A stretch of 64,000 bases of DNA, taken from the sequence record OP114734.1. One strand, given 5' to 3'. A program made the position numbers and the translations under genes. The notes below the pieces were generated by a model, which saw only the letters and a program-made list of their open reading frames with translations, was not told the DNA's origin and did not search any database. This document shows positions 49,927 through 64,000 of this stretch, in pieces (position 1 is the stretch's first letter; each line of letters begins with the position of its first letter). Source of the DNA: Escherichia phage vB_ESM-pEJ01.

Positions 49927-50335
49927 TATTAATGATTTCTTCTACACATTCCAACTCAAGGCCACCGATACCGCAACCGATTTTAGGGATATAGAAAGGC
50001 TGTATAGCACCTTCAAAAACATCATTGAGAGTCTCAAATCCTTTCAGGATAGCACCATATTCAGCATTTGGACCCGGTCGGAATTGGGTATAGAGATTCA
50101 CCCCGCACCAGTTATAACCATTAACTTGATGCGTCCAGACACTAAACCCACCCAACTTTTCTACCTTACCGCGAGAAGTTTGCTTGTCAATCTCTAACGC
50201 TTGCGGGAACTCTTTCGCGATATCCGCAGCAATACCAGCGCCCATAGTATGAAAACAATTACAACCATGAATTAAATGACCGTTTCCTTGTTTAAACAGG
50301 GCGATGAGATCGCCCTTTACAGTATCAATAATCAT
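49880..50335 (-). CDS. Macro domain protein (ADP-ribose binding / ADP-ribosyl hydrolase-like)
   Basis: IHGCNCFHTMGAGIAADIAKEF and IPKIGCGIGGLELECV match the two conserved glycine-rich macrodomain motifs; 151 aa. Confidence 0.6.
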   Translation of the reverse strand: MIIDTVKGDLIALFKQGNGHLIHGCNCFHTMGAGIAADIAKEFPQALEIDKQTSRGKVEKLGGFSVWTHQVNGYNWCGVNLYTQFRPGPNAEYGAILKGFETLNDVFEGAIQPFYIPKIGCGIGGLELECVEEIINIATPDINIVVVEYDK

Positions 50336-50350
50336 AATATAAACCTCTCA

Positions 50351-50710
50351 TTAGTCACGGGAAGACAACCCAGCCATAAAACGGCTTAACAGTGTGTCGC
50401 GATAAGCAAAGCATAATTGCTTATCAGGGGCAGTATCACACAGGTTACGTTTTGTTTTAGCAAAGCTGGCAATACTCAGATCCCACGCTCGATTTTTTCG
50501 TTTTTCGTCTCGACCTTGTTTGTATGCTTCATCAAGTTCGAGCGCGATAAAATCACTACACATGTTATCATCATCACAGAAAGTTTTAATGATCTTTTTG
50601 TTGATCTCAAATCCTTTGTATTCGAACTTTGGATAAGGGCGCTCATTACTAGCAAGCGAACCAGCAGAGAACATCATAACAATCATAGCAATTATTGTCA
50701 ACTTTTTCAT
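50351..50710 (-). CDS. secreted protein with signal peptide (119 aa)
   Basis: MKKLTIIAMIVMMFSAGSLASN signal-peptide-like; 4 Cys. Confidence 0.5.
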   Translation of the reverse strand: MKKLTIIAMIVMMFSAGSLASNERPYPKFEYKGFEINKKIIKTFCDDDNMCSDFIALELDEAYKQGRDEKRKNRAWDLSIASFAKTKRNLCDTAPDKQLCFAYRDTLLSRFMAGLSSRD

Positions 50711-50717
50711 ATATTCC

Positions 50718-51308
50718 TCAATAGCGTTTAGTCTTAAGAATGCCTTTACTCTTTAGATGGTTAGCCTTTTTTAGTACGTCATCAGCATAACCTAATCCGG
50801 CTTTATAGTTCCATCCAGCATTGTAAGAAGCTAGCGCGAGTCGGATATTACCGTTTCGAACATCCAGCCAGTATGCTAACTCATCCATCGCGTAGAATGC
50901 AGAAACCTCGCGATTCATGATAAAGTTGATAGTCTGGCGATCACTCATTTTAACACCGAGCTTTGCATTTTTCGCTTTCACCGTTTTAAGGTAATTTTGA
51001 AACAATCCATAAGCATGATGATTTTTCTTTGGTGCTAAGTTTGCACCCGCGCTTGATTCTTGCCATGCGATACCCGCCAGGATGTGGCCTAAACCCTTTC
51101 CGTTATAGCGAATATTCGGATGGTCCTTTTTCAACTTACCGCTTTTCTCGAATTGCTCGCCGTATTGATAGGCGAAATGTAAATTATCTAGTTGGTGTGC
51201 TGTAAAGTTGTCTATCGGCGCTTTTTTGATCGGTGCGCTAGTCGATGCGTGTGTAGCACCAACGGCTAGTGACAGACTCAATACTATCGCTTTTAGAACT
51301 TTTAACAT
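50718..51308 (-). CDS. secreted lytic transglycosylase (SLT domain) with signal peptide
   Basis: Signal peptide MLKVLKAIVLSLSLAVGATHA; SLT catalytic region GIAWQESSAG...YGLFQ. Confidence 0.5.
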   Translation of the reverse strand: MLKVLKAIVLSLSLAVGATHASTSAPIKKAPIDNFTAHQLDNLHFAYQYGEQFEKSGKLKKDHPNIRYNGKGLGHILAGIAWQESSAGANLAPKKNHHAYGLFQNYLKTVKAKNAKLGVKMSDRQTINFIMNREVSAFYAMDELAYWLDVRNGNIRLALASYNAGWNYKAGLGYADDVLKKANHLKSKGILKTKRY

Positions 51309-51393
51309 TAATTTCTCCTGTTTGGCTTAACTTTCTGATTCCATAATATAGCCCTATCACCAGAAAGTCAAGCATTAATTTAACCAATTTCCA

Positions 51394-51816
51394 TTATTGG
51401 TCTACCTTCAAAACAACCGCCGACATTTTACCCGCCAGTCGTTTTGGATTCTCTATAATCATTCGGCAGCATAGACCGTGATATGGCTTACCCTCTTCGA
51501 TTAGATCTACTGTCATCCCGATCCACATGTTACCATCAGTAATTTCTAATCGATTAGGTCGGTCTTCCATTTTCAGGAAGTCGAAGATCTCCGGCAAACG
51601 AGTTTCTATCTTATTGAATAGTTCCATTGTCTTATGTTCATCGATATGACGATCGGTTAGACGGTCGATCATATGCGGACTAAAGCGAATGAAAATATAC
51701 TCACCGTAACCATCATTCAAGCACTTTTCTTTGATCTGCGCATTGGTTTTGCGCATTTCGGTTTCGAAGAATCTACGCAGCTTACTACGGCGAACATGTA
51801 CGTTAATTGTTTCCAT
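51394..51816 (-). CDS. regB: RegB endoribonuclease
   Basis: INVHVRRSKLRRFFE...NRLEITDGNMWIGMTV...CRMII resembles remembered T4 RegB; start at ATG 51816 (AAGGA SD). Confidence 0.8.
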   Translation of the reverse strand: METINVHVRRSKLRRFFETEMRKTNAQIKEKCLNDGYGEYIFIRFSPHMIDRLTDRHIDEHKTMELFNKIETRLPEIFDFLKMEDRPNRLEITDGNMWIGMTVDLIEEGKPYHGLCCRMIIENPKRLAGKMSAVVLKVDQ

Positions 51817-51820
51817 TTTA

Positions 51821-52156
51821 TTATCCTTTCTTAAACAAATTGCGAAGCCAGTATACAAACGGGATTTCTTTAAACTTGAATTTCTCTATAGTTAATTCTT
51901 TAGTAGCAAGATGAATACCATAAGCATCATGTGTCACGATATGCCATTTTCTATAGTCCAAATGTGAACAACCGTCTGGATCTAGGTTAATAAGAGTTTC
52001 TCGCTCACTAGGATTATTTTTCCACAATTTTGTAATAGGATCGCACATAATTCGACCTAGCGTACCATGAATAATCTCACAACGGTAAAGTTTTCCAGCA
52101 GTGAGATAGGCGCACCCGTCATAGTCGGTATAAACAAACACTTCTTTAACACTCAT
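51821..52156 (-). CDS. small paralog family protein (member 1 of 3)
   Basis: DPDGCSHLDYRKWHIV motif shared with next two ORFs; start at ATG 52156 (AAGGAG SD, promoter upstream). Confidence 0.5.
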   Translation of the reverse strand: MSVKEVFVYTDYDGCAYLTAGKLYRCEIIHGTLGRIMCDPITKLWKNNPSERETLINLDPDGCSHLDYRKWHIVTHDAYGIHLATKELTIEKFKFKEIPFVYWLRNLFKKG

Positions 52157-52184
52157 TTTAATACTCCTTTGTTTCGATGGGGGT

Positions 52185-52213
52185 ATATTACTACCCCCGT
52201 TTTGTTGTGTCAA
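52185..52213 (-). promoter_or_regulatory. sigma70-type early promoter (-35 TTGACA rc 52208-52213; -10 TAATAT; IR gggggta/taccccc)
   Basis: 17-nt spacer; IR 52180-52199. Confidence 0.45.
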
Positions 52214-52474
52214 CTACTTTTTCAAGATTTTTTTAATTGCGTTCCAAAGACCTTTATTCTCAGGTTGTTTTGGTTCTTCGATTAGTGTCCATGTTCGACC
52301 GTCTAAGTGTGCACAATTTTTAAGACAAATAAAAATCTGGTGTCCCTTATCATCACGGATATAACCACTATTCGCAAATCTTTCATGTGGTGTATATTCA
52401 TACAGTGTATTTGGTGTAATATACTTGCGGTTACTATAAGGTGTCATCACATACATCATGGTACTAACTCCCAT
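52214..52474 (-). CDS. small paralog family protein (member 2 of 3)
   Basis: YEYTPHERFANSGYIRDDKGHQIFICLKNCAHLDGRTWTL; start uncertain. Confidence 0.45.
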   Translation of the reverse strand: MGVSTMMYVMTPYSNRKYITPNTLYEYTPHERFANSGYIRDDKGHQIFICLKNCAHLDGRTWTLIEEPKQPENKGLWNAIKKILKK

Positions 52475-52650
52475 TTATCACCGCGAAGATGAGAACATCC
52501 ACCATCAAGAAGTATCGTAATACGATAACCTATATCATCTTTGATGTAACCGATTGTCGGTGGATTTTCGTCGTCTCGTGTCGGGGTAAAATCATACATC
52601 TTTCCGGGCGTAATATCTTGTCCTTTATTGCTATTGGTATAAACTTTCAT
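52456..52650 (-). CDS. small paralog family protein (member 3 of 3)
   Basis: YDFTPTRDDENPPTIGYIKDDIGYRITILLDGGCSHLRGDKWEL. Confidence 0.45.
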   Translation of the reverse strand: MKVYTNSNKGQDITPGKMYDFTPTRDDENPPTIGYIKDDIGYRITILLDGGCSHLRGDKWELVP

Positions 52651-52671
52651 TTTCTTAATCTCCTATATTAA

Positions 52672-53370
52672 CTAACCACGGGTATAGTGTTCCAGAACAA
52701 CTGTCAGATGAATATATTCTAATAGATCTTTCCAAAAGTCAACATCTGGTTCTTCCGGCATACCGTTTTTCTTTGCCTCTTCACGCGCGAGTTTAACACG
52801 TTCGTAGAGATCTTTCAATTCTTCCCGCACATTATCAAAGGTTCTTTCTCCTAACTTACACGCTAAAATAGAAGAACGTCGCGCGAGCGGGAATTGTAGA
52901 TCACCTGTCTGATAGATTTCAAGTAGCTGATAACCAACACGCAGAGCATGAGAAAGATCTTTCCAGTTACTGAAATACTTTTCAGATTTGGCTACCTGTT
53001 TCTTGAGATAACCAGACAAACCCCACATCCCAACATGATAGAATTTATCGCGATGTGTTCGGATGTATTCCCATTCTCTGGAGGATTCAATCAACATGTT
53101 ACTAGGCGCGTGCACCATGTCAATAGCGCCGATATCACCTTTACATGCCAGATTGATAAACCGTTTTAGACTAAACATATTAACGTCAATATCGTCTTTG
53201 GTGTTCTTGATACCTTGACCGCTAGTGCTTTGGTCATAGTGTTCTTTCATCGATCCTAAGATAATTTCTTTCGCAGTCGGAACAAAGATACCACGATAAT
53301 CTTTATCTGAATTTTCAGTATCAAGGCCGTATAAGTGAGATCCGAAGACCATTTTAACCATTGTATGCAT
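52672..53370 (-). CDS. minimal nucleotidyltransferase (Pol-beta superfamily fold)
   Basis: hG[GS]-x(n)-DhD signature FGSHLYGLDTENSDKDY near N-terminus; 232 aa with helical C-terminal half. Confidence 0.5.
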   Translation of the reverse strand: MHTMVKMVFGSHLYGLDTENSDKDYRGIFVPTAKEIILGSMKEHYDQSTSGQGIKNTKDDIDVNMFSLKRFINLACKGDIGAIDMVHAPSNMLIESSREWEYIRTHRDKFYHVGMWGLSGYLKKQVAKSEKYFSNWKDLSHALRVGYQLLEIYQTGDLQFPLARRSSILACKLGERTFDNVREELKDLYERVKLAREEAKKNGMPEEPDVDFWKDLLEYIHLTVVLEHYTRG

Positions 53371-53388
53371 AATTAAACCCTCAGTTGA

Positions 53389-53982
53389 TTAAACGTATTC
53401 AGCAACAACATTATGTTTAAAATTACCGCTCCTTTTTGGATTTGGATTTTTCAATCGACTATGTATTAAATTTTTGTTGTATCCGGTTGCTTTAGACGCT
53501 TCGCCAATACTTTGATAAACAACACCATTAACACGAATCGGACGAGACTTATTAAACAGTTTATTCAATCCGGCATCATATGCATGGTTTTGGTTTTCTT
53601 GCCTCGTTGCGATCTCAAGATTCCAAACACAATTACAAGATTTTACCCCACTTTTATGATTAATTTCAAGACCTTCACAATCACCTATAAAGTGTTCAGC
53701 AACTAGTCTATGAATATAGCGATATTTCTTACTTTCCCCATCATGCAAGCATACATTATAATAACCATCACCAGCGCGTTTAGGTCGGAGTAGTTTACCT
53801 TTAACACGTTTTATAGTAGGGAACTCACCAAATTGATTTCTCTGGATAAACGGAATCTCGCGGTCTAATGAACGGATTCGACCATAGTTAGACACTTGAT
53901 AAAAACTTTCATATCCTTTAATTGGCTTCCATATCTCAGGGATTTCTACACCATCAATAACAACAAGTTTAAATTCTTCCAT
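53389..53982 (-). CDS. HNH homing endonuclease (NUMOD4-like N-terminus plus HNH)
   Basis: IKGYESFYQVSNYGRIRS (NUMOD4-like); YIHRLVAEHFIG...INHKSGVKSCNCVWNLEIATRQENQNH (HNH). Confidence 0.75.
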   Translation of the reverse strand: MEEFKLVVIDGVEIPEIWKPIKGYESFYQVSNYGRIRSLDREIPFIQRNQFGEFPTIKRVKGKLLRPKRAGDGYYNVCLHDGESKKYRYIHRLVAEHFIGDCEGLEINHKSGVKSCNCVWNLEIATRQENQNHAYDAGLNKLFNKSRPIRVNGVVYQSIGEASKATGYNKNLIHSRLKNPNPKRSGNFKHNVVAEYV

Positions 53983-54001
53983 ATTTCACCTCATAAAAAT
54001 A

Positions 54002-54025
54002 AAGCCAACCCTTTCGGATTGGCTT
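54002..54025 (-). terminator. rho-independent terminator 3' of GrcA-like gene
   Basis: rc hairpin aagccaatccgaaagggttggctt followed by UAUUUUUAU. Confidence 0.45.
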
Positions 54026-54030
54026 GTTGA

Positions 54031-54444
54031 TTACATAGATTCCGTAAAGGTACGGGTGATAATATCAAGTTGTTGTTCGCGTGTCAAGGCGTTGAAGCGG
54101 GTAGCATAACCACTGATTCGAATTGTAAGCTGCGGGTACTTCTCAGGATGTTCAACCGCATCAAGAAGAGTCTCCCGACGCAGTACATTCGCGTTGAGAT
54201 GATGACCCGCGTTACTATTTACCCCGTTATCAATTGCTAAAGGACGGAAGCTAGTTGTGTGCAGTTCCAGCGAATCGACGTCTTCTGCGGTGATCACATG
54301 ATCTTCTGCGAAAGTTTTACTAACAATTACTTTAGCGCCGATCAGTGCTTTCGGTTCGGATACCAGAATCATAGGCGCGAAATGTCCACCGATAATAGTA
54401 CCTTTATGCTCACCTTTCATGATTTGAATTGCTTTAAATTCCAT
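54031..54444 (-). CDS. GrcA/YfiD-like autonomous glycyl radical cofactor protein
   Basis: C-terminal [58 protein letters not shown] closely matches remembered E. coli GrcA incl. glycyl-radical RxSGY motif. Confidence 0.7.
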
Positions 54445-54579
54445 AATTCACCTCTTATAGATCAGGACGTTCGTCATTAATTTTACCAACCAAAACCCCA
54501 TAGAGTTTATCAGGTTGGACTTTACGATTCTTATTGATTGTAGCACGGAATCGACGAGCCACGCTATCTTTATTTTTCA

Positions 54580-55071
54580 TTAGTTGATACCTAAGCCAAT
54601 GAAAATAGGTTGGTCTTCTACATTACCCATCCCAACACTAAGTCGATTCAATTCTAAAAACTGCAATACGCTGTCAGTAAATCCGCGCATGGTAGTATCT
54701 AGGATAAAAATTGTTTTGTCAAGACTACGACCTCGCCATGTGATCGGATTCAGGAAAGTTCGGATAGACGTACAATCTACATTTGAAATATTTACATTTT
54801 CACCGCGACCGCGATCTCGGATCGTTTTGGCATGTTCTCGCGTCGTTGAAACGATAAAGACACTATAGCCCTTTCGCGTATAATGGTCATATAACTTGAT
54901 TGTAGCGTCTGTATGCCCTGTCTGACGGCCTAAATTGATTGAGACAATGGAATCTAGGTCATCAGCAAAATTGCGTCGCTTACGGCGTTCTATGATGCCA
55001 TTTACGGCAGAAATACACGCAGCATAAATCAAATCTTTACTTTCTAATTCTAAATCAATGTCAATATTCAT
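54580..55071 (-). CDS. hypothetical protein (163 aa)
   Basis: ORF track. Confidence 0.5.
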   Translation of the reverse strand: MNIDIDLELESKDLIYAACISAVNGIIERRKRRNFADDLDSIVSINLGRQTGHTDATIKLYDHYTRKGYSVFIVSTTREHAKTIRDRGRGENVNISNVDCTSIRTFLNPITWRGRSLDKTIFILDTTMRGFTDSVLQFLELNRLSVGMGNVEDQPIFIGLGIN

Positions 55072-55133
55072 GGTAAAGTCTCCAGTGAACGGGGAGAGAT
55101 CCTTAGATTGTCTCCCCGTTGATGGTTAATATT

Positions 55134-55708
55134 TTATTTTGGATCTGGGAAATTCAATAGAGCATATTCTCCATAAAATTTCCTAGCTGCATTATCATAA
55201 GCGATTGCAGCTTCGATTTCTGTGTCATATTGTCCAAGAACATGTCTTTGTAGGTTGACCATTATACTAGCTCTCCATTTCTTACGCAAATCCTTCCTGT
55301 TACACTTACTAACACCCTTATACACACTAGAAAACTTTTAGACTTCTTCTTTCTATTATGTTGATTTTGCGCGTCGGTTGCCTCCATAAGATTTGGAGGA
55401 TTGTTATTAGCAGGATTACCGTCAATATGATCAATTAATCTAACTTGCGTCCCATGTTCTAGAAACCAAACAACCCTATGCACGAATAGATGAACTCTAG
55501 GAAGACCGTCATCTCTACTATGCCAAAATCTAAGATGACCATCTTTATTTGTTCTGACTTTAACTAAATCGCCGTGTTTATATCTACTCCCTAATGGTCG
55601 TCCTTTGATAGCTTTACTATCGACTCTATAATATAAGATACCCTCTATATGAGCATATCTAAGTTTTATCTCGTTTTGTAGGGATTCATCCCAATATTTA
55701 AAAGCCAT
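55134..55708 (-). pseudogene. HNH-AP2 homing endonuclease split by a frameshift at an A-run (or sequencing error)
   Basis: 55262..55708 carries HNH (LFVHRVVWFLEHGTQVRLIDHIDGNPANNNPPNL); AP2 domain (YKGVSKCNRKD...AAIAYDNAARKFYGEYA) continues in -1 frame as ORF 55134..55325; shift near aaaag at about 55318-55326. Confidence 0.55.
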
Positions 55709-55753
55709 TTTATAATCCTCACAAAGCCAGCGATTAAGCTGGCTTTATTTTAG

Positions 55754-56143
55754 TTATACCGGGTCTGGATATACCTTTTTATCGAGTTCCATATGCGGTC
55801 CGTCTTTAAAAGTAACCCAATCAACACCGCAGATAACAGGAACACCCAATTCTCGACCAGCTTGTTTAAATGCATCAGCGATCATGCGGTAATATTTCAT
55901 GTTCCATGTATCCTTATCTTTCGGATACGCTACAACGTCAACCGCGAAACCGTGAAGATGACGAGATTTCATAGTCTTAGATTTACCTTCCGCAACATAT
56001 TTCTTTTGCGTTTCTAGACTACGCACACCTTCCGTAATACCAAAATCGACCGGAGTCAGTTCTAATGCACGATGAACGACTTTTACCAGGTCTGGATGTA
56101 CACCAACAAGCCGATCTTTGCTTCTTTGAGATAATTTAAACAT
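55754..56143 (-). CDS. peptidase M15-like cell-wall hydrolase (candidate endolysin)
   Basis: Zn-binding signature SRHLHGFAVDV and later GPHMELD; 129 aa, no signal peptide. Confidence 0.5.
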   Translation of the reverse strand: MFKLSQRSKDRLVGVHPDLVKVVHRALELTPVDFGITEGVRSLETQKKYVAEGKSKTMKSRHLHGFAVDVVAYPKDKDTWNMKYYRMIADAFKQAGRELGVPVICGVDWVTFKDGPHMELDKKVYPDPV

Positions 56144-56171
56144 TATTCACCCCCTTTGTGAGTGATAATAT

Positions 56172-56363
56172 TTAGATTCCTGTGATCCTGCATAGAGTTC
56201 TTGTATTAGCACCAATCAGGATCGCATTAACAGCAACCATTCCCCAATCAACCCACGGATCATTATAAATGCTAAATCCGTTTGCAAGACCAAATACAAG
56301 CATTCCGGTACACATACTCAGAGCAATAATCAACATCACGGTAAAACCAAATGCAAATCTCAT
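56172..56363 (-). CDS. small membrane protein (63 aa)
   Basis: Two hydrophobic helices. Confidence 0.45.
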   Translation of the reverse strand: MRFAFGFTVMLIIALSMCTGMLVFGLANGFSIYNDPWVDWGMVAVNAILIGANTRTLCRITGI

Positions 56364-56364
56364 A

Positions 56365-56631
56365 TTATTTTCCTTTTCTCTGTTTACGTTTATAAAAGTA
56401 ATACATTACCTCATCTCGTCCGGTGACCCAACATGCTAGGGCGGTAAACAGGTTTACAATTCCCAACACACCTACGGATGCGGCGCTATCAACAGACATA
56501 GGAACAGTAAAGGCCATAGCTAACATAGCAACGCCACAAATGACATTAAGCACCATTATAATAAGACCGAAGAAAACCATTGTCAATCCTCCCAAATAAG
56601 AAAACCAACAATCACGCCAGTGATAAGACAT
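56365..56631 (-). CDS. small membrane protein (88 aa)
   Basis: Hydrophobic helices; basic C-terminus. Confidence 0.45.
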   Translation of the reverse strand: MSYHWRDCWFSYLGGLTMVFFGLIIMVLNVICGVAMLAMAFTVPMSVDSAASVGVLGIVNLFTALACWVTGRDEVMYYFYKRKQRKGK

Positions 56632-56774
56632 GATGCGCCGCTAATAAGACAACCCGCGCCAAGTGATTCCCACCAGATCAGAGAAGCGACAATAACACAG
56701 AATCCCCATACTACCGCAATCACAACATAGGCAAGGGTCGCCCAAAACATATATTTGTTCATAATAAATCCCAT
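56583..56774 (-). CDS. small membrane protein (63 aa)
   Basis: Two hydrophobic helices. Confidence 0.45.
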   Translation of the reverse strand: MGFIMNKYMFWATLAYVVIAVVWGFCVIVASLIWWESLGAGCLISGASCLITGVIVGFLIWED

Positions 56775-56947
56775 TCACCAAACAAATAAGAAAAAAGCCA
56801 TATCAACAGAAACGAGGCAATTGATCCGGCAAGCAAAATGATATTAGAGAATCCGCCGTCTATCCAGGCGACAAAACAGAATACGCCAGTATAGAAGCAT
56901 AAACCCAGTACAAAGCATACTATAAGCAACCATAGACAAAACGCCAT
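56759..56947 (-). CDS. small membrane protein (62 aa)
   Basis: Two hydrophobic helices. Confidence 0.45.
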   Translation of the reverse strand: MAFCLWLLIVCFVLGLCFYTGVFCFVAWIDGGFSNIILLAGSIASFLLIWLFSYLFGEWDLL

Positions 56948-57171
56948 AGAAAGCCCTCCAGTGAGCTAATTTAGTGCGGGTAGTACATTACCCTACCCGT
57001 ATTGTTAATCATCGCAGAGCTTCTTCTAGCGCGATCCAAAACCATCCACAAACAACGCCCATACAGACAGCTACAAGAAGATTCATTCTCTCTTTAGGGA
57101 TCATTGCAATCATAACAACAACCATACAGAAAGCCACATTACCATTGAAGTTAACATTTGTTCAACCATTA

Positions 57172-57510
57172 TCACACCTTTAAAGTCATAGACGCATAAA
57201 CATTAATGCCAGGCCAGTTAGGATCGCAATTATACTCAACATCCCACAAATAAAGCGGTTTAGATGTATCAGCCAAGTTTTTAAAATCTTCTACCCACAT
57301 TTCAAGGCTATATGATGGATAAACTAGGCTATCATATCCGCCGTAACGTTGGCCTACTGGTCGGTCAGTAAAAACTACCTCAAGATCCGGTAATTCTTTT
57401 TCAAGGATAACCGCCAGCGCATAAATCAGACGGTCTTCCTTGTTACGCTGCCGAAGGACCGTTGTCAGTTGGTTTTTCTGGTTCACTAGCAAGCACCTCC
57501 ACATTTTCAC
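57172..57510 (-). CDS. hypothetical protein (possibly 3' part of a frameshifted gene)
   Basis: Overlaps upstream ORF by 68 nt; no ATG after the overlap until residue 71. Confidence 0.35.
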   Translation of the reverse strand: MKMWRCLLVNQKNQLTTVLRQRNKEDRLIYALAVILEKELPDLEVVFTDRPVGQRYGGYDSLVYPSYSLEMWVEDFKNLADTSKPLYLWDVEYNCDPNWPGINVYASMTLKV

Positions 57511-57763
57511 AGAATGAAATTTTCACAGACACAATTTTACCATAAGTGAAGAATGAATATACATTATCGAGATATTCAACGTCACCTACAATCACATCAA
57601 ACTGCGGATCAGCAACCGCCGCAACATATTCTACCAGTTCATCAAGAGAATGCAACTTAATTTCATCAATTCGGCTGTATTTGGTTGCATCTTTAATTTT
57701 AAAACCACGTTCTTTCAGTTTGTCAATCAGAATTTCACGCGGAGTTTCAAACAGTTTGCTCAT
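57443..57763 (-). CDS. hypothetical protein (106 aa)
   Basis: GAGGATTATATTATG initiation region. Confidence 0.5.
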   Translation of the reverse strand: MSKLFETPREILIDKLKERGFKIKDATKYSRIDEIKLHSLDELVEYVAAVADPQFDVIVGDVEYLDNVYSFFTYGKIVSVKISFCENVEVLASEPEKPTDNGPSAA

Positions 57764-57784
57764 AATATAATCCTCACATTAAAT

Positions 57785-57985
57785 CTAAAATTTGTTAACG
57801 ACGAATTGCATAATTAGACTAATCACAAACATTGCAAACCAAGTATAAATGCAACAGATAAAAGCTACATACAATTCAATCTGGTCAGAGAATACACCGG
57901 GTAAAAGCATTAGCAAAATAACAACAGTAAAGACGCTAGCGATACCCGCAACAAAACCAATATCATTTTTACTAATCGTCATCAA
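57785..57985 (-). CDS. small membrane protein (66 aa)
   Basis: Two hydrophobic helices. Confidence 0.45.
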   Translation of the reverse strand: MMTISKNDIGFVAGIASVFTVVILLMLLPGVFSDQIELYVAFICCIYTWFAMFVISLIMQFVVNKF

Positions 57986-58191
57986 GTCACCGTTTTGTAA
58001 AGAAACACAATAAAATCCAAGACAAGAAAGACAGTGTAAATGATCATCGTCAAGACAGTAAACACTGTCAAATTTTCATCGTTAGTTAATTCATAGTCGC
58101 CCATCCATACAATCACAAGATATAGCATTGAAAGAATGGAAGCACCTACGAAGTTAAAAAACATATTCTTGAGCGTCATATTAACAACCAT
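57982..58191 (-). CDS. small membrane protein (69 aa)
   Basis: Two hydrophobic helices. Confidence 0.45.
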   Translation of the reverse strand: MVVNMTLKNMFFNFVGASILSMLYLVIVWMGDYELTNDENLTVFTVLTMIIYTVFLVLDFIVFLYKTVT

Positions 58192-58363
58192 CGCGGCTTA
58201 AGTCAACAGCAATTGCATACAGCATAATGAATATGCTAGCAGATCCGAGAATCAATACACCCTCACATTTTGAAACTCGCTCATCAAAATGTAACATTAT
58301 CCATCCGAGGATGTTAAAGGCGCAGACCGCGCCTATGTTCGCTAACCAATTAATCTTTTTCAT
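58181..58363 (-). CDS. small membrane protein (60 aa)
   Basis: Hydrophobic helices. Confidence 0.45.
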   Translation of the reverse strand: MKKINWLANIGAVCAFNILGWIMLHFDERVSKCEGVLILGSASIFIMLYAIAVDLSRDGC

Positions 58364-58371
58364 AATATACC

Positions 58372-58698
58372 TTAGAAAGAAACAGTTTTCAAGAAATCCA
58401 GATTTTCAGTACCGAAAAAGGAAAAGTAGTGTTTTCCTTTTTCGGTTTTAGAGAAAGCGATTGTCTTCTCTACATGGTGACGGAAGCCAGACAGACGATC
58501 ACCCAGGTCAAGGCGGCAAGCGTAAGTAGTGCCGTTTTCGAAAGTAACCTCGATTTGAGTTTTGTCATATTCGCTTTCATAGGCTTTTGCTGCCGCGTCC
58601 TGTGCTTTACGCTCGAAGTCTTCGAAGTGGAATACTTCGTTTGCGTTAGCGAATACAGAAGATTCAGAGAAGATAACTTTAACAGATACTGGTTTCAT
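58372..58698 (-). CDS. hypothetical protein (108 aa)
   Basis: Promoter-leader cassette upstream; AGGAGTATCAAAATG. Confidence 0.5.
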   Translation of the reverse strand: MKPVSVKVIFSESSVFANANEVFHFEDFERKAQDAAAKAYESEYDKTQIEVTFENGTTYACRLDLGDRLSGFRHHVEKTIAFSKTEKGKHYFSFFGTENLDFLKTVSF

Positions 58699-58740
58699 TT
58701 TGATACTCCTTAGTAGTTCGTGTTTCGTTTCGATGGGTGT

Positions 58741-58769
58741 ATTATGCTATACACCCTCTCGCGTGTCAA
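58741..58769 (-). promoter_or_regulatory. sigma70-type early promoter (-35 TTGACA rc 58764-58769; -10 CATAAT; IR gggtgtat/atacaccc)
   Basis: 17-nt spacer; recurring cassette. Confidence 0.5.
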
Positions 58770-58777
58770 CAACTTTT

Positions 58778-58966
58778 TTAGTCTTTTTTCATAATTTCTA
58801 GAGCAGTTTCTACAGCACCTTTCCAACCTTCCCACATAATGGACATAGTAAGGAAGTTAAAGCACCCGCAGGAATCAACCTTTTTAGAGATAAACCATTC
58901 TACAAACGCTTCGCTCATACCATGCTCTTTAGCGGATTCGCGTAATTGTTCAATTTGGTCTTCCAT
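58778..58966 (-). CDS. hypothetical protein (62 aa)
   Basis: ORF track. Confidence 0.45.
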   Translation of the reverse strand: MEDQIEQLRESAKEHGMSEAFVEWFISKKVDSCGCFNFLTMSIMWEGWKGAVETALEIMKKD

Positions 58967-58975
58967 AGTATCACC

Positions 58976-59176
58976 TCAACACTTAACATTATTCAAACGA
59001 TTTTGAAAGTACATATAGCAAGCATAATTTTGTTTTGGCTGTACCGTATCAGATAAGCACGCTTTTACAGCCTCGCGGTCCGATGGATCTACGCCCTCAG
59101 CGTTAAGCAATGCTAAGATCTGATAATAGCGTACTCTCAGTTGCGTTAATGGTTTCTCTCCCATAAAACCCTCCAA
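58976..59176 (-). CDS. hypothetical protein (66 aa)
   Basis: ORF track. Confidence 0.45.
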   Translation of the reverse strand: MEGFMGEKPLTQLRVRYYQILALLNAEGVDPSDREAVKACLSDTVQPKQNYACYMYFQNRLNNVKC

Positions 59177-59404
59177 TTAAAGTTGTTCTGCAATGTATGC
59201 GGTGCATTTACGGAGTTTAGCCATAGCACTACCTTTCATGTCGCTTGCGCCTACAATGTTCATGATCTCTAAGCGATCAGCCGGATTCAGTCTAGTAGCC
59301 CAGATCTGGTTAGCCAGTTCCATTTTACCCATCTGCGGTTCCATCTCAAACATTTCACGCTCAAAGTCGATAATTTCTTTTGCTGCGTCTTTAAAGTTAA
59401 TCAT
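59177..59404 (-). CDS. hypothetical protein (75 aa)
   Basis: ORF track; SD GGGAGGACCAAAATG. Confidence 0.45.
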   Translation of the reverse strand: MINFKDAAKEIIDFEREMFEMEPQMGKMELANQIWATRLNPADRLEIMNIVGASDMKGSAMAKLRKCTAYIAEQL

Positions 59405-59470
59405 TTTGGTCCTCCCGTTTCGTTGATGGTTGTATTGTAGGGGAGTTATCCTCCCCTGTCAACAATTTTA

Positions 59471-59656
59471 TCAGAAATATGCAATATAGTTTGCCAGTCC
59501 TACAGAGTCATCATTCGGCATTGCTTTTACCGCCAGTTCAAACCCTTCTTCAACTTTCTGTTTAGCGGATTCTTCGTTATAACCCCAGATGACCAGAATA
59601 GCTACTACGTTTTCTTTGCTTACTGCTTTCAGTGCTTTAGTGATGCGACGTGCCAT
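59471..59656 (-). CDS. hypothetical protein (61 aa)
   Basis: Promoter-leader cassette upstream. Confidence 0.45.
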   Translation of the reverse strand: MARRITKALKAVSKENVVAILVIWGYNEESAKQKVEEGFELAVKAMPNDDSVGLANYIAYF

Positions 59657-59702
59657 AATTTGATTCTCCGTTTAAGAAAGTGTGTTTCGTTTCGATGGGT
59701 GT

Positions 59703-59731
59703 ATTATGCTATAGGCGTGATCTGGTGTCAA
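59703..59731 (-). promoter_or_regulatory. sigma70-type early promoter (-35 TTGACA rc 59726-59731; -10 CATAAT)
   Basis: 17-nt spacer; recurring cassette. Confidence 0.5.
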
Positions 59732-59763
59732 CAACTTTTTTAAAAAATTTTAGGCAATAAAAA

Positions 59764-59785
59764 AGCCACTCCGAAGAGTGGCTTA
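59764..59785 (-). terminator. rho-independent terminator
   Basis: Hairpin agccactc-cgaa-gagtggct followed on minus transcript by UUUUUUAUU. Confidence 0.5.
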
Positions 59786-59786
59786 T

Positions 59787-59932
59787 AGGGAAGGTAGCGA
59801 ATCTTCCTTGTCTCCAACCTGCTAGCGGCCTAGCAAGTGAATGCTTTAGCGTACCGGATCACCCCATACGCTGTAATAAATGCGGCTAGGTGACGTCCAA
59901 ATCATTCTAACCGCGCTGTCTTTAGTTCACTA
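59787..59932 (-). ncRNA. candidate structured non-coding RNA / long 3' UTR (about 145 nt between stop codon and terminator)
   Basis: Several short hairpins (ggaag/cttcc, gctag/ctagc, gcgta/tacgc, gcggctag/ctaaccgc); no ORF; no tRNA cloverleaf found. Confidence 0.25.
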
Positions 59933-60151
59933 TTATTTATATCGCTTTCTCTCGCGACGTTTTTGATCTTCTTCCTTGATAGAGTTAAACGCATCAAAAA
60001 GACACATGACACTGATAATGAACATAACCGTATTTTCTACGATATCCCACGGCTTCGCATCAGTACAGATCCCCCAAACGGTAAGAAATGCAAATAGTGC
60101 AGAAGAGATCACAAGCATGATACTTGCTAAGATATAAAAAGTCATTTTCAT
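59933..60151 (-). CDS. small membrane protein (72 aa)
   Basis: Hydrophobic helices; basic C-terminus. Confidence 0.45.
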   Translation of the reverse strand: MKMTFYILASIMLVISSALFAFLTVWGICTDAKPWDIVENTVMFIISVMCLFDAFNSIKEEDQKRRERKRYK

Positions 60152-60342
60152 GGTTTTACCTCAATTCTTCGATATTCATCACACATCCACGCAGTAAGCA
60201 AGAATCCCAGCACATAAGCAACAAAATACGTTAATGCTTCTTCTGGTTTCGTGCTATGTATCATCAGTAAACCAGCGAGAACGGTCTTAACAATTACATT
60301 TAAAATAACTAGCCACGCAAATAATTTCATCGTTTGCCCCAT
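60148..60342 (-). CDS. small membrane protein (64 aa)
   Basis: Hydrophobic helices. Confidence 0.45.
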   Translation of the reverse strand: MGQTMKLFAWLVILNVIVKTVLAGLLMIHSTKPEEALTYFVAYVLGFLLTAWMCDEYRRIEVKP

Positions 60343-60566
60343 TTCGGTCGAGTCTTTTCAAACTTATACATTCCGTAACAATCTCGAATCATCCACGTAA
60401 CAAGAGCACCAGTCAACACAGACAATACACAGAAGAAGTAAAACGGTCCGGTTGCATTATCAACATGAGCAAGCCATGTAAAGAAAACACATGCAAGGAA
60501 CGTGAAGAACATCATAAAGCACAAGAAAGCAAAATATTTTATACTACTCATAGCGCCACCATACAA
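60327..60566 (-). CDS. small membrane protein (79 aa)
   Basis: Hydrophobic helices. Confidence 0.45.
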   Translation of the reverse strand: MYGGAMSSIKYFAFLCFMMFFTFLACVFFTWLAHVDNATGPFYFFCVLSVLTGALVTWMIRDCYGMYKFEKTRPKWGKR

Positions 60567-60654
60567 CAGATCATAAGAAACCCCAACGCAATAAGAATTG
60601 CGTCAAATTTAGTGAACTCAGGTCCACCTATCAACATCATTCGTTCTATTTCGT

Positions 60655-60897
60655 TCATAGCGTACAAAGCCATTTAAAAGCACCACATAAAGCGAGCAGA
60701 ATACTAGGTATAAACGAGATCATAACAAGTTTGCAAAAATCATCTAAGGTAACGCCGGAATAGCTACCTACTGTAACAACACCGATCATCAGACACAGAA
60801 AGAAAACAAATGCAACCAGAAACAAAGTATTGCTAAACAGTTTAGTGATCATTAGACACCCCACGACGATCAATTTCAAAAACTTTTTTACCATCAA
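60655..60897 (-). CDS. small membrane protein (start uncertain)
   Basis: Hydrophobic helices; overlaps upstream ORF by 56 nt. Confidence 0.4.
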   Translation of the reverse strand: MMVKKFLKLIVVGCLMITKLFSNTLFLVAFVFFLCLMIGVVTVGSYSGVTLDDFCKLVMISFIPSILLALCGAFKWLCTL

Positions 60898-61045
60898 CGA
60901 AGCATGTCACAACTGCCTCGTTGACTTCCGCAAATTGTTGTGTTACCCACTTAAGGTCAGAGCGAAACAATGTTCTATTAATAACAAATGTTTTACCGCT
61001 CTTATCCTTACCCATAAATTTTGCTTTAACCATATCCAATTCCAT
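60842..61045 (-). CDS. possible Dmd-like antitoxin (67 aa)
   Basis: MELDMVKAKFMG...QQFAEVNEAVVTCFVDGKKVFEIDRRG resembles my recollection of T4 Dmd (not verifiable here); not in the T4 dmd position. Confidence 0.35.
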   Translation of the reverse strand: MELDMVKAKFMGKDKSGKTFVINRTLFRSDLKWVTQQFAEVNEAVVTCFVDGKKVFEIDRRGVSNDH

Positions 61046-61054
61046 ATTATCACC

Positions 61055-61213
61055 TTATTTGCTAATCGCTAAACCCAATCCGAAGAGAGCACCCGATGCT
61101 ACAGTATACCCGAAAGTTTCAAATGCAGTAAAGATATCTAAGCCACCAGCTAACAGAGTTGCAGTAAACAGAGTACCAGCTACGAACATAAAAGTTTTAC
61201 CGATGAATTTCAT
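61055..61213 (-). CDS. small membrane protein (52 aa), not in ORF track
   Basis: MKFIGKTFMFVAGTLFTATLLAGGLDIFTAFETFGYTVASGALFGLGLAISK; AGGAGAATCAAAATG initiation region and promoter directly upstream. Confidence 0.5.
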   Translation of the reverse strand: MKFIGKTFMFVAGTLFTATLLAGGLDIFTAFETFGYTVASGALFGLGLAISK

Positions 61214-61244
61214 TTTGATTCTCCTTTCGTTTGTTTGTGGGGGT

Positions 61245-61273
61245 ATCTTACTACCCCCGTTTCATGTTGTCAA
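61245..61273 (-). promoter_or_regulatory. sigma70-type early promoter (-35 TTGACA rc 61268-61273; -10 TAAGAT; IR gggggta/taccccc)
   Basis: 17-nt spacer; IR 61240-61259. Confidence 0.45.
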
Positions 61274-61279
61274 CTATTT

Positions 61280-61654
61280 TTAAGAATATTTTACTTCGTC
61301 TACAATGTCTTTCATGACATTGATTTCCATTCCGGTCAGAACACGTTGGAACATGTGCTGCACATACGCTTTCAGGTATTCATTTGATGGCTTACTATCG
61401 AAAGTCTTTTTAGTGTAGTAGTCATCACCGAAAGCTACTGTAATTACATTTTCGTCGTCGCTCCAAGCGATATAAGCAAATTTGCCGTTATCCCAGAAGC
61501 GAGCACTAATTGCTACTTTTGTTGAATCGAATCCTACTTCGCTGTGAGATTCAAGAACTACTTGTGTGCCAGTTTCTTTATGAATGTAGTAGCGGGATAC
61601 TAAGTCAAAGTTACGGGTGTAGTGACATTCGAATTTATCTTTAAACATCATCAT
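61280..61654 (-). CDS. hypothetical protein (124 aa)
   Basis: Promoter-leader cassette upstream. Confidence 0.5.
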   Translation of the reverse strand: MMMFKDKFECHYTRNFDLVSRYYIHKETGTQVVLESHSEVGFDSTKVAISARFWDNGKFAYIAWSDDENVITVAFGDDYYTKKTFDSKPSNEYLKAYVQHMFQRVLTGMEINVMKDIVDEVKYS

Positions 61655-61692
61655 TTTTGATTCTCCTAAGTGTGTTTCGTTTCGATGTGTGC

Positions 61693-61721
61693 ATTATGCT
61701 ATAGTCGTTTATGGTTGTCAA
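61693..61721 (-). promoter_or_regulatory. sigma70-type early promoter (-35 TTGACA rc 61716-61721; -10 CATAAT)
   Basis: 17-nt spacer; recurring cassette. Confidence 0.5.
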
Positions 61722-61738
61722 CACATAAAAACAAAAAA

Positions 61739-61757
61739 CCCCGAAAAATTTTCGGGG
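61739..61757 (-). terminator. rho-independent terminator 3' of the 2H phosphoesterase gene
   Basis: Hairpin ccccgaaaa/ttttcgggg followed on minus transcript by UUUUUUGUUUUU. Confidence 0.5.
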
Positions 61758-61764
61758 TATAAAA

Positions 61765-62235
61765 TTACAGTTTGGACGTCCACTCCAGGTCTAGATCTTC
61801 GACATACTCATGAGATCGGACAATCTCTAAATCGAACTCTAGGTCAGTGCCAAATTTACGCGCACCAACATCATAAGAAAGCGTGATATGCGGTACATAT
61901 TCAGGATAATCCCACGTCGCGCCTAAAGCAGTGCCTATATCGTGTCTGAATTGCATGTAGTCGCTTTCAAATGCCAACACAAGCGCATTAGTACCGGATT
62001 GAGTTTCAAACACTTTAAGATGGCATAGAGAGCCTAAGAACTTTTCACCCTCTTCTGGTATAAACGGAACATAGACACGAGAATATAAGATAGTGCTATG
62101 CAGTTTATCACGAGGAACGGCATTAGGCAGATCGTAGAACTCCTGCAATTTTTCAATGCGGTCTAGTGTATCCTCAGTGAATTTAACCGCCGCATATGTA
62201 CCTTTAACGGATTCTCTAAACGGGGTCATAATCAA
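61765..62235 (-). CDS. 2H phosphoesterase, Acb1-like (T4 57B position; candidate anti-CBASS cyclic-nucleotide phosphodiesterase)
   Basis: Two H-x-T/S motifs (HSTILYS and HITLSYD) about 90 aa apart; about 155 aa; adjacent to 57A-like gene. Confidence 0.55.
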   Translation of the reverse strand: MIMTPFRESVKGTYAAVKFTEDTLDRIEKLQEFYDLPNAVPRDKLHSTILYSRVYVPFIPEEGEKFLGSLCHLKVFETQSGTNALVLAFESDYMQFRHDIGTALGATWDYPEYVPHITLSYDVGARKFGTDLEFDLEIVRSHEYVEDLDLEWTSKL

Positions 62236-62558
62236 GCCTCCGTGATCAGTTCTACTTCCTCTTCTGCGTCTTCCTCTTCTGCGTCTTCCTCTTCTGCGTC
62301 TTCCTCTTCTGCGTCTTCCTCTTCTGCGTCTTCCGCTGCTTCGTCTTTAGGGAGAAGTGCTTTCACTTCTTCGACAATAGCATCAAGGGAAACAGTGCCG
62401 TTTTCGTCTGGCTGAATACCAAGAATGCGTACCAGTTCCATCAATACACGCTCACGATCTTTCAGTTGGCCTTCTAAGAATGCGGCCTTTTCTTGAGTGT
62501 CAAACAGACGTACTTTCAGGACATTAATCATTTGTTCATGCTGATTGGACATATTCAC
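62232..62558 (-). CDS. 57A: gp57A-like tail-fibre assembly chaperone with acidic repeat tail
   Basis: N-terminal coiled-coil; position upstream of gene 1 as in T4; C-terminal (DAEEE)n encoded by 15-nt tandem repeat. Confidence 0.55.
   Translation of the reverse strand: MNMSNQHEQMINVLKVRLFDTQEKAAFLEGQLKDRERVLMELVRILGIQPDENGTVSLDAIVEEVKALLPKDEAAEDAEEEDAEEEDAEEEDAEEEDAEEEVELITEA
62261..62335 (-). repeat. 15-nt tandem repeat cttctgcgtcttcct x about 5 (codes EDAEE repeats)
   Basis: Direct tandem copies at 62261, 62276, 62291, 62306, 62321. Confidence 0.85.
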
Positions 62559-62584
62559 ATCTCCTACTTGTTGATAACTTTTTA

Positions 62585-63241
62585 TTAAATGTTCGCGAGA
62601 ATCGCGCTTTCAAATTCTTCTAATGTACCATTATTTATGATGATGGTTTCACCGTCAATAGGCAAAATTCCTTTTTCGGTGGAGTGAGTCGATACAATAC
62701 CAGTATCACGCTGAATATGCAACACCTTAGCACCCATAGCACGCATGAGAGCAATTTCAATAGGCTGACGCACATCAACCACTACAAAATACCCTTCTTC
62801 ATTTTTGCGCTTCATAAACTCATCCACAAAGAGATTACACCAATAAAGCGGATTGATCAAGTTAACCATTATATCAGTACCGAGAGTGGTTAACATGAGA
62901 CGAATAGACCAGACGTTATTATGTTTTTCGCCGATCTCATTAACGACCTTGTAAATCTCAGCCAGACGATCACAAGTAAAGGAACTACCGCCATACTTCG
63001 AATCTAGCATAAGCAGACACTGAATAAACCACTTATGCGCGGTATAGGTATCAATACCTAGATCGGCTTCTCTGTCACGCCCTAACCCGTCAAAGTCAAG
63101 ATAAGTCAGACCTAAGTCTGGTTGACATTCGCATAAGATTTCTTTGATCGGTGCTGCCAGTTGATAACTATGTCCATCAATGATTAACGCGGCAGTGTCT
63201 TTTCCTACTCGCTTTTTACCACAAAGTGCAATCAATTTCAT
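62585..63241 (-). CDS. 1: deoxynucleoside monophosphate kinase gp1
   Basis: MKLIALCGKKRVGKDT P-loop; YQLAAPIK, TTLGTDIMVN, VVVDVRQ resemble remembered T4 gp1. Confidence 0.88.
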   Translation of the reverse strand: MKLIALCGKKRVGKDTAALIIDGHSYQLAAPIKEILCECQPDLGLTYLDFDGLGRDREADLGIDTYTAHKWFIQCLLMLDSKYGGSSFTCDRLAEIYKVVNEIGEKHNNVWSIRLMLTTLGTDIMVNLINPLYWCNLFVDEFMKRKNEEGYFVVVDVRQPIEIALMRAMGAKVLHIQRDTGIVSTHSTEKGILPIDGETIIINNGTLEEFESAILANI

Positions 63242-63256
63242 TATATAAGCCTCTTA

Positions 63257-63847
63257 TTACTTTCTAAAAGCAGGGTGCATAGCTTTAATACCTTCCACCC
63301 GCTGACGATCCGCCGCCTGAATTGCTGGGCGAGGAACGATCAGTTGACCATCACGTTCAATGCTCATTGTTTTAAAGGGAAGAATTGCAGTACACACCAG
63401 AGATTCATGCATATCATCGGTGTATGTTAACTCAAGTTCCCCCAATTGTGAACACCAACAACCATAAAAGTTAAAAGTGCACACAATGTTACGTCGTTCG
63501 TTGTCCATCATGTGAACTTGAACGGCTTCCGGCATTGAATCCTTCCACGCAGTGGAGTTACCGTTATTGTAGTCTACTATAGAAAGCATCCATGTGTAAA
63601 GGTTTAGATAGCTTTCCAAATGCTCATCGACAATAAACCGGACTACCAACGGGTCAAACTCCACATGACTAGACGGATAATCAGCGACCGCCAAACCATA
63701 TTGACCAGCAACTTGCTTAGTCGGTGGAATGGTTATAGCAGGAAGTGTAACACCTTGAGCATTTAAAGTAAAGCCTTTTGTTAGTTGTCCATCTGGAATA
63801 TTGATCTGCCAGTTGCTAGGGTTAGCATAGTTAAAGAGATTAGACAT
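63257..63847 (-). CDS. 3: probable tail completion/sheath stabiliser protein (T4 gp3 position)
   Basis: 196-aa ORF immediately upstream of gene 1 as gene 3 in T4; sequence not verified. Confidence 0.5.
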   Translation of the reverse strand: MSNLFNYANPSNWQINIPDGQLTKGFTLNAQGVTLPAITIPPTKQVAGQYGLAVADYPSSHVEFDPLVVRFIVDEHLESYLNLYTWMLSIVDYNNGNSTAWKDSMPEAVQVHMMDNERRNIVCTFNFYGCWCSQLGELELTYTDDMHESLVCTAILPFKTMSIERDGQLIVPRPAIQAADRQRVEGIKAMHPAFRK

Positions 63848-64000
63848 TACTGATTCCTCAAATGAAAATATTTATTAACAATTGTCGCTTTGCGACGTGC
63901 CTACGGCACTGACTACTTTTTAACCGAAACAAATTTTTATTATTCTAAAGATCTTTCTTCGTTTTGGTTATGTTTTAACCAATAACTATATTTTTATACA

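Follow-up and report, generated by a model that had tools for sequence, protein, structure and literature searches.

Two overlapping early genes, very probably not one frameshifted gene, in the small-ORFan block of an RB49-like phage

Background

Short same-strand overlaps with an internal Shine-Dalgarno (SD) sequence, and with it translational coupling, are usual in the early gene clusters of T4-type phages. The programmed +1 site of prfB, the gene for RF2, consists of an SD-like element, then CUU and then an in-frame UGA. The tail assembly chaperone pair G/GT is produced by a -1 programmed frameshift in lambda and many tailed phages.

Here we describe a pair of overlapping minus-strand ORFs, A and B, located in the window, i.e. 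the whole 64,000-nt stretch of DNA that was analysed. The pair had been predicted to represent either one gene of about 210 aa interrupted by a frameshift, programmed or accidental, or two genes with an unusual overlap. It resembles the coupled overlaps of T4-type phages in that the start codon and SD of B lie inside the 3' end of A, and in that the genes are tightly packed and co-oriented. It differs from them in that its overlap of 44 nt is the longest in 50 kb of RB49 annotation, in that B would begin with GTG and not ATG, and in that coupling is proposed from the sequence. As in G/GT, two frames overlap and the second ORF seemingly lacks a start codon downstream of the overlap. In contrast to G/GT, B lies in the +1 and not the -1 frame, no XXXYYYZ heptamer occurs in 57510..57443, the locus belongs to a block of early ORFans and not to a tail module, and B is served by an SD and a GTG of its own. 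With prfB the pair shares a downstream frame of +1 and a GGAGG element 2 nt upstream of a CUU in the upstream frame, although B has its own start, and the homologues of A and B are two genes.

The closest described relatives of the pair are RB49p109 (NP_891680.1) and RB49p108 (NP_891679.1) of phage RB49, which are orthologues of A and B with 97-100% identity and the same order, strand and 44-nt overlap. Together with their orthologues in Phi1, JSE and GEC-3S, they constitute the same gene pair as A/B. The Krischvirus orthologues show no substantial difference from the pair in the window; their annotations diverge only in the choice of the start codon of B and in the omission of B from two records.

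Methods

Substitutions were scored in ten Krischvirus genomes. An artificial A-B fusion was used as the query in an exhaustive phmmer search, performed with no word index, of 1.84 billion representative proteins. A word-indexed search with the same fusion gave zero matches and missed the RB49 proteins too; the exhaustive search was used instead. Four more distant T4-like lineages from metagenomes (L011, L012/L015, L013 and L014) served as the outgroup; about five divergent lineages of the A/B family are known. Private stop codons were traced through 58 genomes by 28-mer word matching. Protein models were generated with AF2 from shallow alignments and compared with the PDB and BFVD using Foldseek.

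Results

ORF A (57763..57443, minus strand), the homologue of RB49p109, begins with ATG and encodes 106 aa. ORF B, in its maximal call (57510..57172, minus strand), begins with GTG and encodes 112 aa. According to the ORF listing, the stretch common to both is at most 57443..57510, or 68 nt, which confirms the original prediction of two ORFs in different frames with an overlap of this length. The 68 nt are nonetheless a mechanical maximum that depends on choosing the most upstream start of B. Relative to A, B is in the +1 frame (57763-57510 = 253 = 3x84+1), and the same holds for a GTG at 57486 measured from the start of A (57763-57486 = 277 = 3x92+1). A relation of +1 does not fit a -1 frameshift of the G/GT or dnaX type. 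Start-type codons in the B frame are GTG 57510, ATG 57504, TTG 57492 and GTG 57486, after which the next is ATG 57300, codon 71 of ORF B. It had been noted beforehand that 70 codons pass without a start codon after the overlap; such a gap does follow the overlap, but its real length is 47 codons, the figure of 70 having been counted from the start of the ORF. Because the next start codon comes only 47 codons past the overlap, the start of B is placed inside it.

From GTG 57486, its likeliest start, gene B (57172..57486, minus strand), the homologue of RB49p108, encodes 104 aa. The segment read in two frames would then be 57443..57486 (minus strand), which encodes the C-terminal tail of A in one frame and the N-terminal tail of B in the other, and its length of 44 nt is the same as in the RB49 annotation. 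In 50 kb of that annotation, with about 100 gene junctions, 44 nt is the longest overlap, the runner-up measures 35 nt and most overlaps measure 1-19 nt. The overlap thus lies in the tail of the normal distribution and not outside it.

The 1.2 kb around the ORF pair is 90-99.7% identical to sequences in 58 phage records, all of them Krischvirus, including RB49, Phi1, JSE and GEC-3S of the T4-type Straboviridae. By this measure the window itself is Krischvirus, that is, from an RB49-like, T4-type coliphage. Both ORFs are present in the 58 records at no less than 96% amino-acid identity. In RB49 the pair is entered as two CDS, RB49p109 (106 aa) and RB49p108 (104 aa), with an overlap of 44 nt. 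The GTG equivalent to 57486 is the annotated start of B in RB49, JSE and Makalu, the ATG equivalent to 57504 is that in GoldenSnicker, UPWr_E1 and G37-3, and two GenBank records are without any annotation of B. A matches the profile phrog_16584 over its full length (1-106 of 106; E 6.5e-72), and B matches phrog_16246 (E 1e-71), with profile positions 1-104 falling on residues 9-112 of the 112-aa ORF. Pfam contains no family for A or B. A tblastn search of 50,697 phage records with A and B recovered Krischvirus members only; matches to Streptomyces and Helicobacter phages (E 5-9) were discarded as noise. In scans of IMG/VR with A and with B, phage ECD7 was the sole match.

Taken alone, the window looks like a split gene, with two ORFs in different frames and no start codon downstream, and it does carry one private indel, though in a neighboring gene. 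On such grounds a gene of about 200 aa might have been split by an indel introduced in sequencing or assembly, or by a recent pseudogenizing mutation. Ten independently sequenced and aligned Krischvirus genomes, however, keep the same frames and show zero indels over the 592 nt of the pair, so the arrangement is not an assembly artefact. The 58 records carrying both ORFs, the purifying selection on both halves in their own frames and the two genes of the outgroup lineages speak against such a split as well. An accidental frameshift is refuted by these comparative data, and we leave it next to no probability.

Seven proteins passed an E-value of 0.001 in the phmmer search with the A-B fusion, and every real one covers one half of the query. 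P0001 is A itself and P0002 is a piece of B. P0004 (83 aa) matches residues 9-86 of A with 49% identity, and P0003 (105 aa), P0005 (88 aa) and P0007 (84 aa) match B with 38-56% identity. P0006 (3759 aa), which apparently spanned the artificial junction, matched by chance through a tandem SVKVTFDENVTV repeat and was rejected. When 5.8 billion clusters were searched with profiles, one further homologue of B (P0009) and one of A (P0011, 88 aa) were recovered. The homologues of B (P0003, P0005, P0007 and P0009) each stand alone, with lengths of 84-105 aa. A fused A-B homologue was found neither among the 1.84 billion representatives nor among the 5.8 billion clusters. The comparison of homologues, which the original prediction had proposed as a check, has returned separate genes, each encoding 83-105 aa and each with a start of its own.

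Contigs carrying the outgroup homologues are T4-like, with neighbors such as dNMP kinase, Acb1/57B, an M15 endolysin and a glycyl-radical protein, and in all of them the homologues of A and B are adjacent yet separate genes. The B homologues are all in the +1 frame, start with ATG and have an SD-like sequence (-4.9 to -6.9 kcal/mol). In L012/L015, A ends in GAGGGT TGA, which is followed by a single A and then by the ATG of B, leaving a 1-nt gap. In L011 (...GAGGTGAAATATGAATAA) and L013 (...GGAGATGAAAATGATTGA) the genes share the classic 8-nt ATGNNTRA overlap, and in L014 the ATG of B lies 23 nt before the TGA of A, giving an overlap of 23 nt. The 44-nt overlap in the window is the long end of this series. 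It had been suggested that homologues arranged as two independent genes with the same overlap would tell against a split gene; two genes are indeed what the distant lineages have, but their overlaps are shorter (-1, 8 and 23 nt). A homologues (P0004, P0011 and the ORFs of L014 and L013) stop 1-10 residues past a conserved ISFCE motif, and A in the window extends 20 residues beyond it. In the alignment, B homologues begin 6-20 residues later than B in the window. Because the homologues end and begin inside the tails that A and B have in the window, the conserved cores are free of overlap and only lineage-specific tails overlap. This comparison of lineages shows a two-gene ancestry of A/B.

The A-only part contains 16 polymorphic sites (6.3%), 14 of which are synonymous in the A frame, and the B-only part contains 25 (9.2%), with 20 of the 25 synonymous in the B frame. 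As judged from these substitutions, A and B are each shown to be under purifying selection in their own frame. The 68-nt maximal overlap is the most variable stretch, with 12 variable sites (17.6%), and each change in it is non-synonymous in at least one frame; by the same count both overlapping tails are weakly constrained. Past 57486, the changes at 57475, 57468, 57466 and 57454 are synonymous in B and those at 57473, 57470 and 57452 are synonymous in A. B-synonymous and A-synonymous changes interleave in the overlap, with no single clean switch between them, which counts against a single shift point because one shift point predicts one clean switch.

Two private stop codons bear on the same question. 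In G37-3, GAG is replaced by TAG in A at the equivalent of 57499 (L009 765-767), which cuts A to an outgroup-like 88 aa and brings back an overlap of 8 nt (ATGTGTAG), as in the distant relatives. In PHB13, an in-frame TAG (equivalent to 57495-57493) stands in the B frame between ATG 57504 and GTG 57486. A shift in G37-3 would have to precede the opening of the B frame of PHB13, so no single site is open in both. Each stop occurs in 1 of the 58 genomes; as singletons they are supporting and not decisive, and they could be sequencing errors.

An SD sequence for B, GGAGGTG (57494..57500, minus strand), lies inside A, 7 nt upstream of GTG 57486. Its duplex with the 3' end of 16S rRNA reaches -10.6 kcal/mol, which ranks among the best 0.5% of positions in 50000-63900. 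The GAGG/GGAGG core is kept in 7 of 8 aligned genomes and is weakened to TAGGTG in G37-3. TTG 57492 is too near this SD, and the profile phrog_16246 begins at the residue of GTG 57486. On the strength of the SD, the profile and the substitutions upstream, GTG 57486 is likely to be the start of B, and we infer that it is really used for initiation.

Two genes with a start of B further upstream, either at ATG 57504 (110 aa; 62-nt overlap) or at GTG 57510 (112 aa; 68-nt overlap), represent an improbable variant of the same arrangement. This variant is favored by the greater strength of ATG over GTG as a start codon, by the annotations of GoldenSnicker, UPWr_E1 and G37-3, which place the start of B at ATG 57504, and by the new TAG in G37-3, which makes the ATGTGTAG overlap of 8 nt, as in L011 and L013. 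Against this, no anti-SD pairing precedes ATG 57504 or GTG 57510 (+0.4 kcal/mol), the in-frame TAG of PHB13 stands between ATG 57504 and GTG 57486, and the PHROG profile for B opens at the residue of the latter. All four substitutions in 57510..57487 are, moreover, non-synonymous in the B frame (W>L, W>C, C>Y and C>W). The upstream extension of ORF B (57487..57510, minus strand), which holds GTG 57510, ATG 57504 and TTG 57492, is probably not translated in the B frame.

The +1 frame of B relative to A, the 47 codons past the overlap without a start codon and the adjacency of A and B in every lineage could also be accounted for by a programmed +1 frameshift inside 57510..57443, yielding an A-B fusion of about 196-200 aa, either alone or beside the separate proteins. 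Candidate sites are CUU-G (57493..57490), just past the SD-like GGAGG, and an A-run at 57477..57473; the position of GGAGG, 2 nt upstream of the A-frame CUU, recalls prfB. Unlike the prfB site, however, the CUU is followed by neither a stop nor a rare (hungry) codon, and re-pairing on UUG would be poor. Nor is the motif conserved, since CUU is replaced by GUU in PHB13 and A stops upstream of the candidate sites in G37-3. The A-run reads AAGAA or AAAAG, in place of AAAAA, in four genomes, and with both candidates polymorphic the overlap contains no conserved slippery site. No stimulatory or sequestering RNA structure was found in 57535..57425, whose predicted folding is weaker than that of shuffled controls (z = +1.78). 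A fused homologue is absent from the representatives and clusters searched, the distant homologues are separate and have their own ATG, and the synonymous patterns interleave with no one-time switch. The SD, finally, is fully accounted for as the ribosome-binding site of B. We consider a programmed +1 frameshift very unlikely. The predicted gene of about 210 aa, whether split by a programmed or an accidental frameshift, is not supported, in view of the separate distant homologues, the lack of a fusion in the databases searched, the SD-GTG of B and the stop in G37-3; the alternative that accompanied it, two genes with an unusual overlap, is borne out by the homologues, the SD-GTG and the selection in each frame.

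Two separate genes are also consistent with the proteins themselves. A has a conserved folded core at residues of about 8-86 and a non-conserved tail at 87-106, and the conserved core of B begins at about residue 15. The AF2 model of A (mean pLDDT 67.5) has an alpha/beta core at 8-84 and a tail at 85-106 with a pLDDT of about 46-52; that of B (mean 76) has a pLDDT below 50 at residues 1-14 and a confident core at 16-104. The low-confidence parts of these models, both built on shallow alignments, are exactly the overlapping parts of A and B. Each protein is predicted to fold as its own alpha/beta domain, and the tails encoded by the overlap are probably disordered.

Foldseek searches of the PDB with the two models gave nothing significant (best E 0.33 and 0.58). 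In BFVD, the model of B matched itself and, weakly, a 106-aa JSE protein (E 3.9e-3, TM 0.48), which may be A. Residues 38-64 of A (HSLDELVEYVAAVADPQFDVIVGDVEY, 57650..57570) and 59-85 of B (YSLEMWVEDFKNLADTSKPLYLWDVEY, 57312..57232) are 37% identical (BLASTP E 0.015); in both AF2 models this 27-residue similarity coincides with a helix-strand unit, and its register recurs across lineages. A comparison of the A and B profiles gave an hhalign probability of 1.3% and HMM scores of 2-8 bits. That A and B are ancient tandem paralogues is possible but unproven. We assign one slight probability jointly to two further ideas: that such paralogues form a heterodimer, and that a minor +1 shift at CUU (57493..57491), prfB-like but without the stop, produces a small, Krischvirus-specific fraction of A-B fusion. 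Because they are adjacent in all five lineages, A and B may tentatively be supposed to act together.

A and B are early ORFans. The pair sits within a long block on the minus strand that consists of small hypothetical genes and runs from the endolysin/vs.8 region to 55.3/dmd. A hyperplastic ORFan region of this kind has been described for RB49 and Phi1 (PMC2839356). The SD and start codon of A (57761..57775, minus strand) form the 15-mer GAGGATTATATTATG, which has 11 minus-strand copies in the window versus 0.02 expected, with 5' ends at 479, 13505, 29189, 36265, 37498, 38121, 41232, 42359, 44817, 50347 and 57775. Upstream of several copies (36265, 37498 and 42359) stand TTGACA, a GC-rich stem-loop and TATAAT, which is the architecture of the PeSL promoter/stem-loop cassettes of RB49 and Phi1 (PMC2839356). 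By its sequence context, GAGGATTATATTATG corresponds to the 3' end of PeSL elements. The A homologues of L012 and L014, both distant contigs, are likewise preceded by the motif.

Several features of the surrounding genes were observed in passing. Very small hydrophobic ORFs (60-90 aa) flank A/B at 56172..56947 and 57785..58363 (minus strand) and are putative membrane proteins according to the W115 annotation. Several of the flanking ORFs overlap by tens of nucleotides when called mechanically, e.g. 56583..56774 with 56365..56631, and these small ORFs share the start-codon ambiguity of ORF B. Directly downstream of B lies the homologue of RB49p107 (57009..57167, minus strand), a putative membrane protein of 52 aa (MVEQMLTSMVMAFCMVVV...). 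It contains a 2-nt TG insertion at 57138..57137, where the window reads AATGTGGC versus AATGGC in relatives, and this insertion splits it into an ORF of 19 aa (57167..57108) and a GTG-initiated ORF of 42 aa (57137..57009). The insertion is missing from five aligned relatives, and 0 of 39 matching phage records are 100% identical over the site; it reflects either a real frameshift private to this genome or an error of sequencing. Between a vs.8-like gene and the endolysin, an ORF of 148 aa (55262..55708, minus strand) carries HNH-endonuclease-like motifs (HIDGNPANN...), and the RB49 annotation lists no such gene at this place. This ORF is possibly a mobile homing-endonuclease insertion limited to this genome or sublineage.

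Discussion

A/B is very probably a pair of separate, overlapping genes, the second of which has an internal ribosome-binding site, and not a frameshifted gene; as such it is an ordinary arrangement that has already been annotated in relatives. We propose that A and B are co-transcribed as separate early genes within the small-ORFan block. A would be translated from its own GAGGA-N7-ATG site, and B would be translated independently from GTG 57486, served by GGAGGTG (57500..57494) in the 3' end of A. With B starting at this GTG, a 44-nt overlap in the +1 frame results. Translational coupling of B to A is a plausible addition, in which ribosomes on A would keep the start of B accessible. The overlap itself would have arisen in this lineage as the tails of A (C-terminal) and B (N-terminal) lengthened.

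Conclusions

The locus needs no frameshift annotation. A frameshift, if true, would have made the locus a new case of +1 recoding in a phage of the T4 type, and the evidence is against it. For gene B, on whose start GenBank records differ when they include the gene at all, we offer a reasoned start, GTG 57486. The pair further provides a small worked example of how an overlap may lengthen, from a 1-nt gap through 8 and 23 to 44 nt, via the extension of unconstrained tails.
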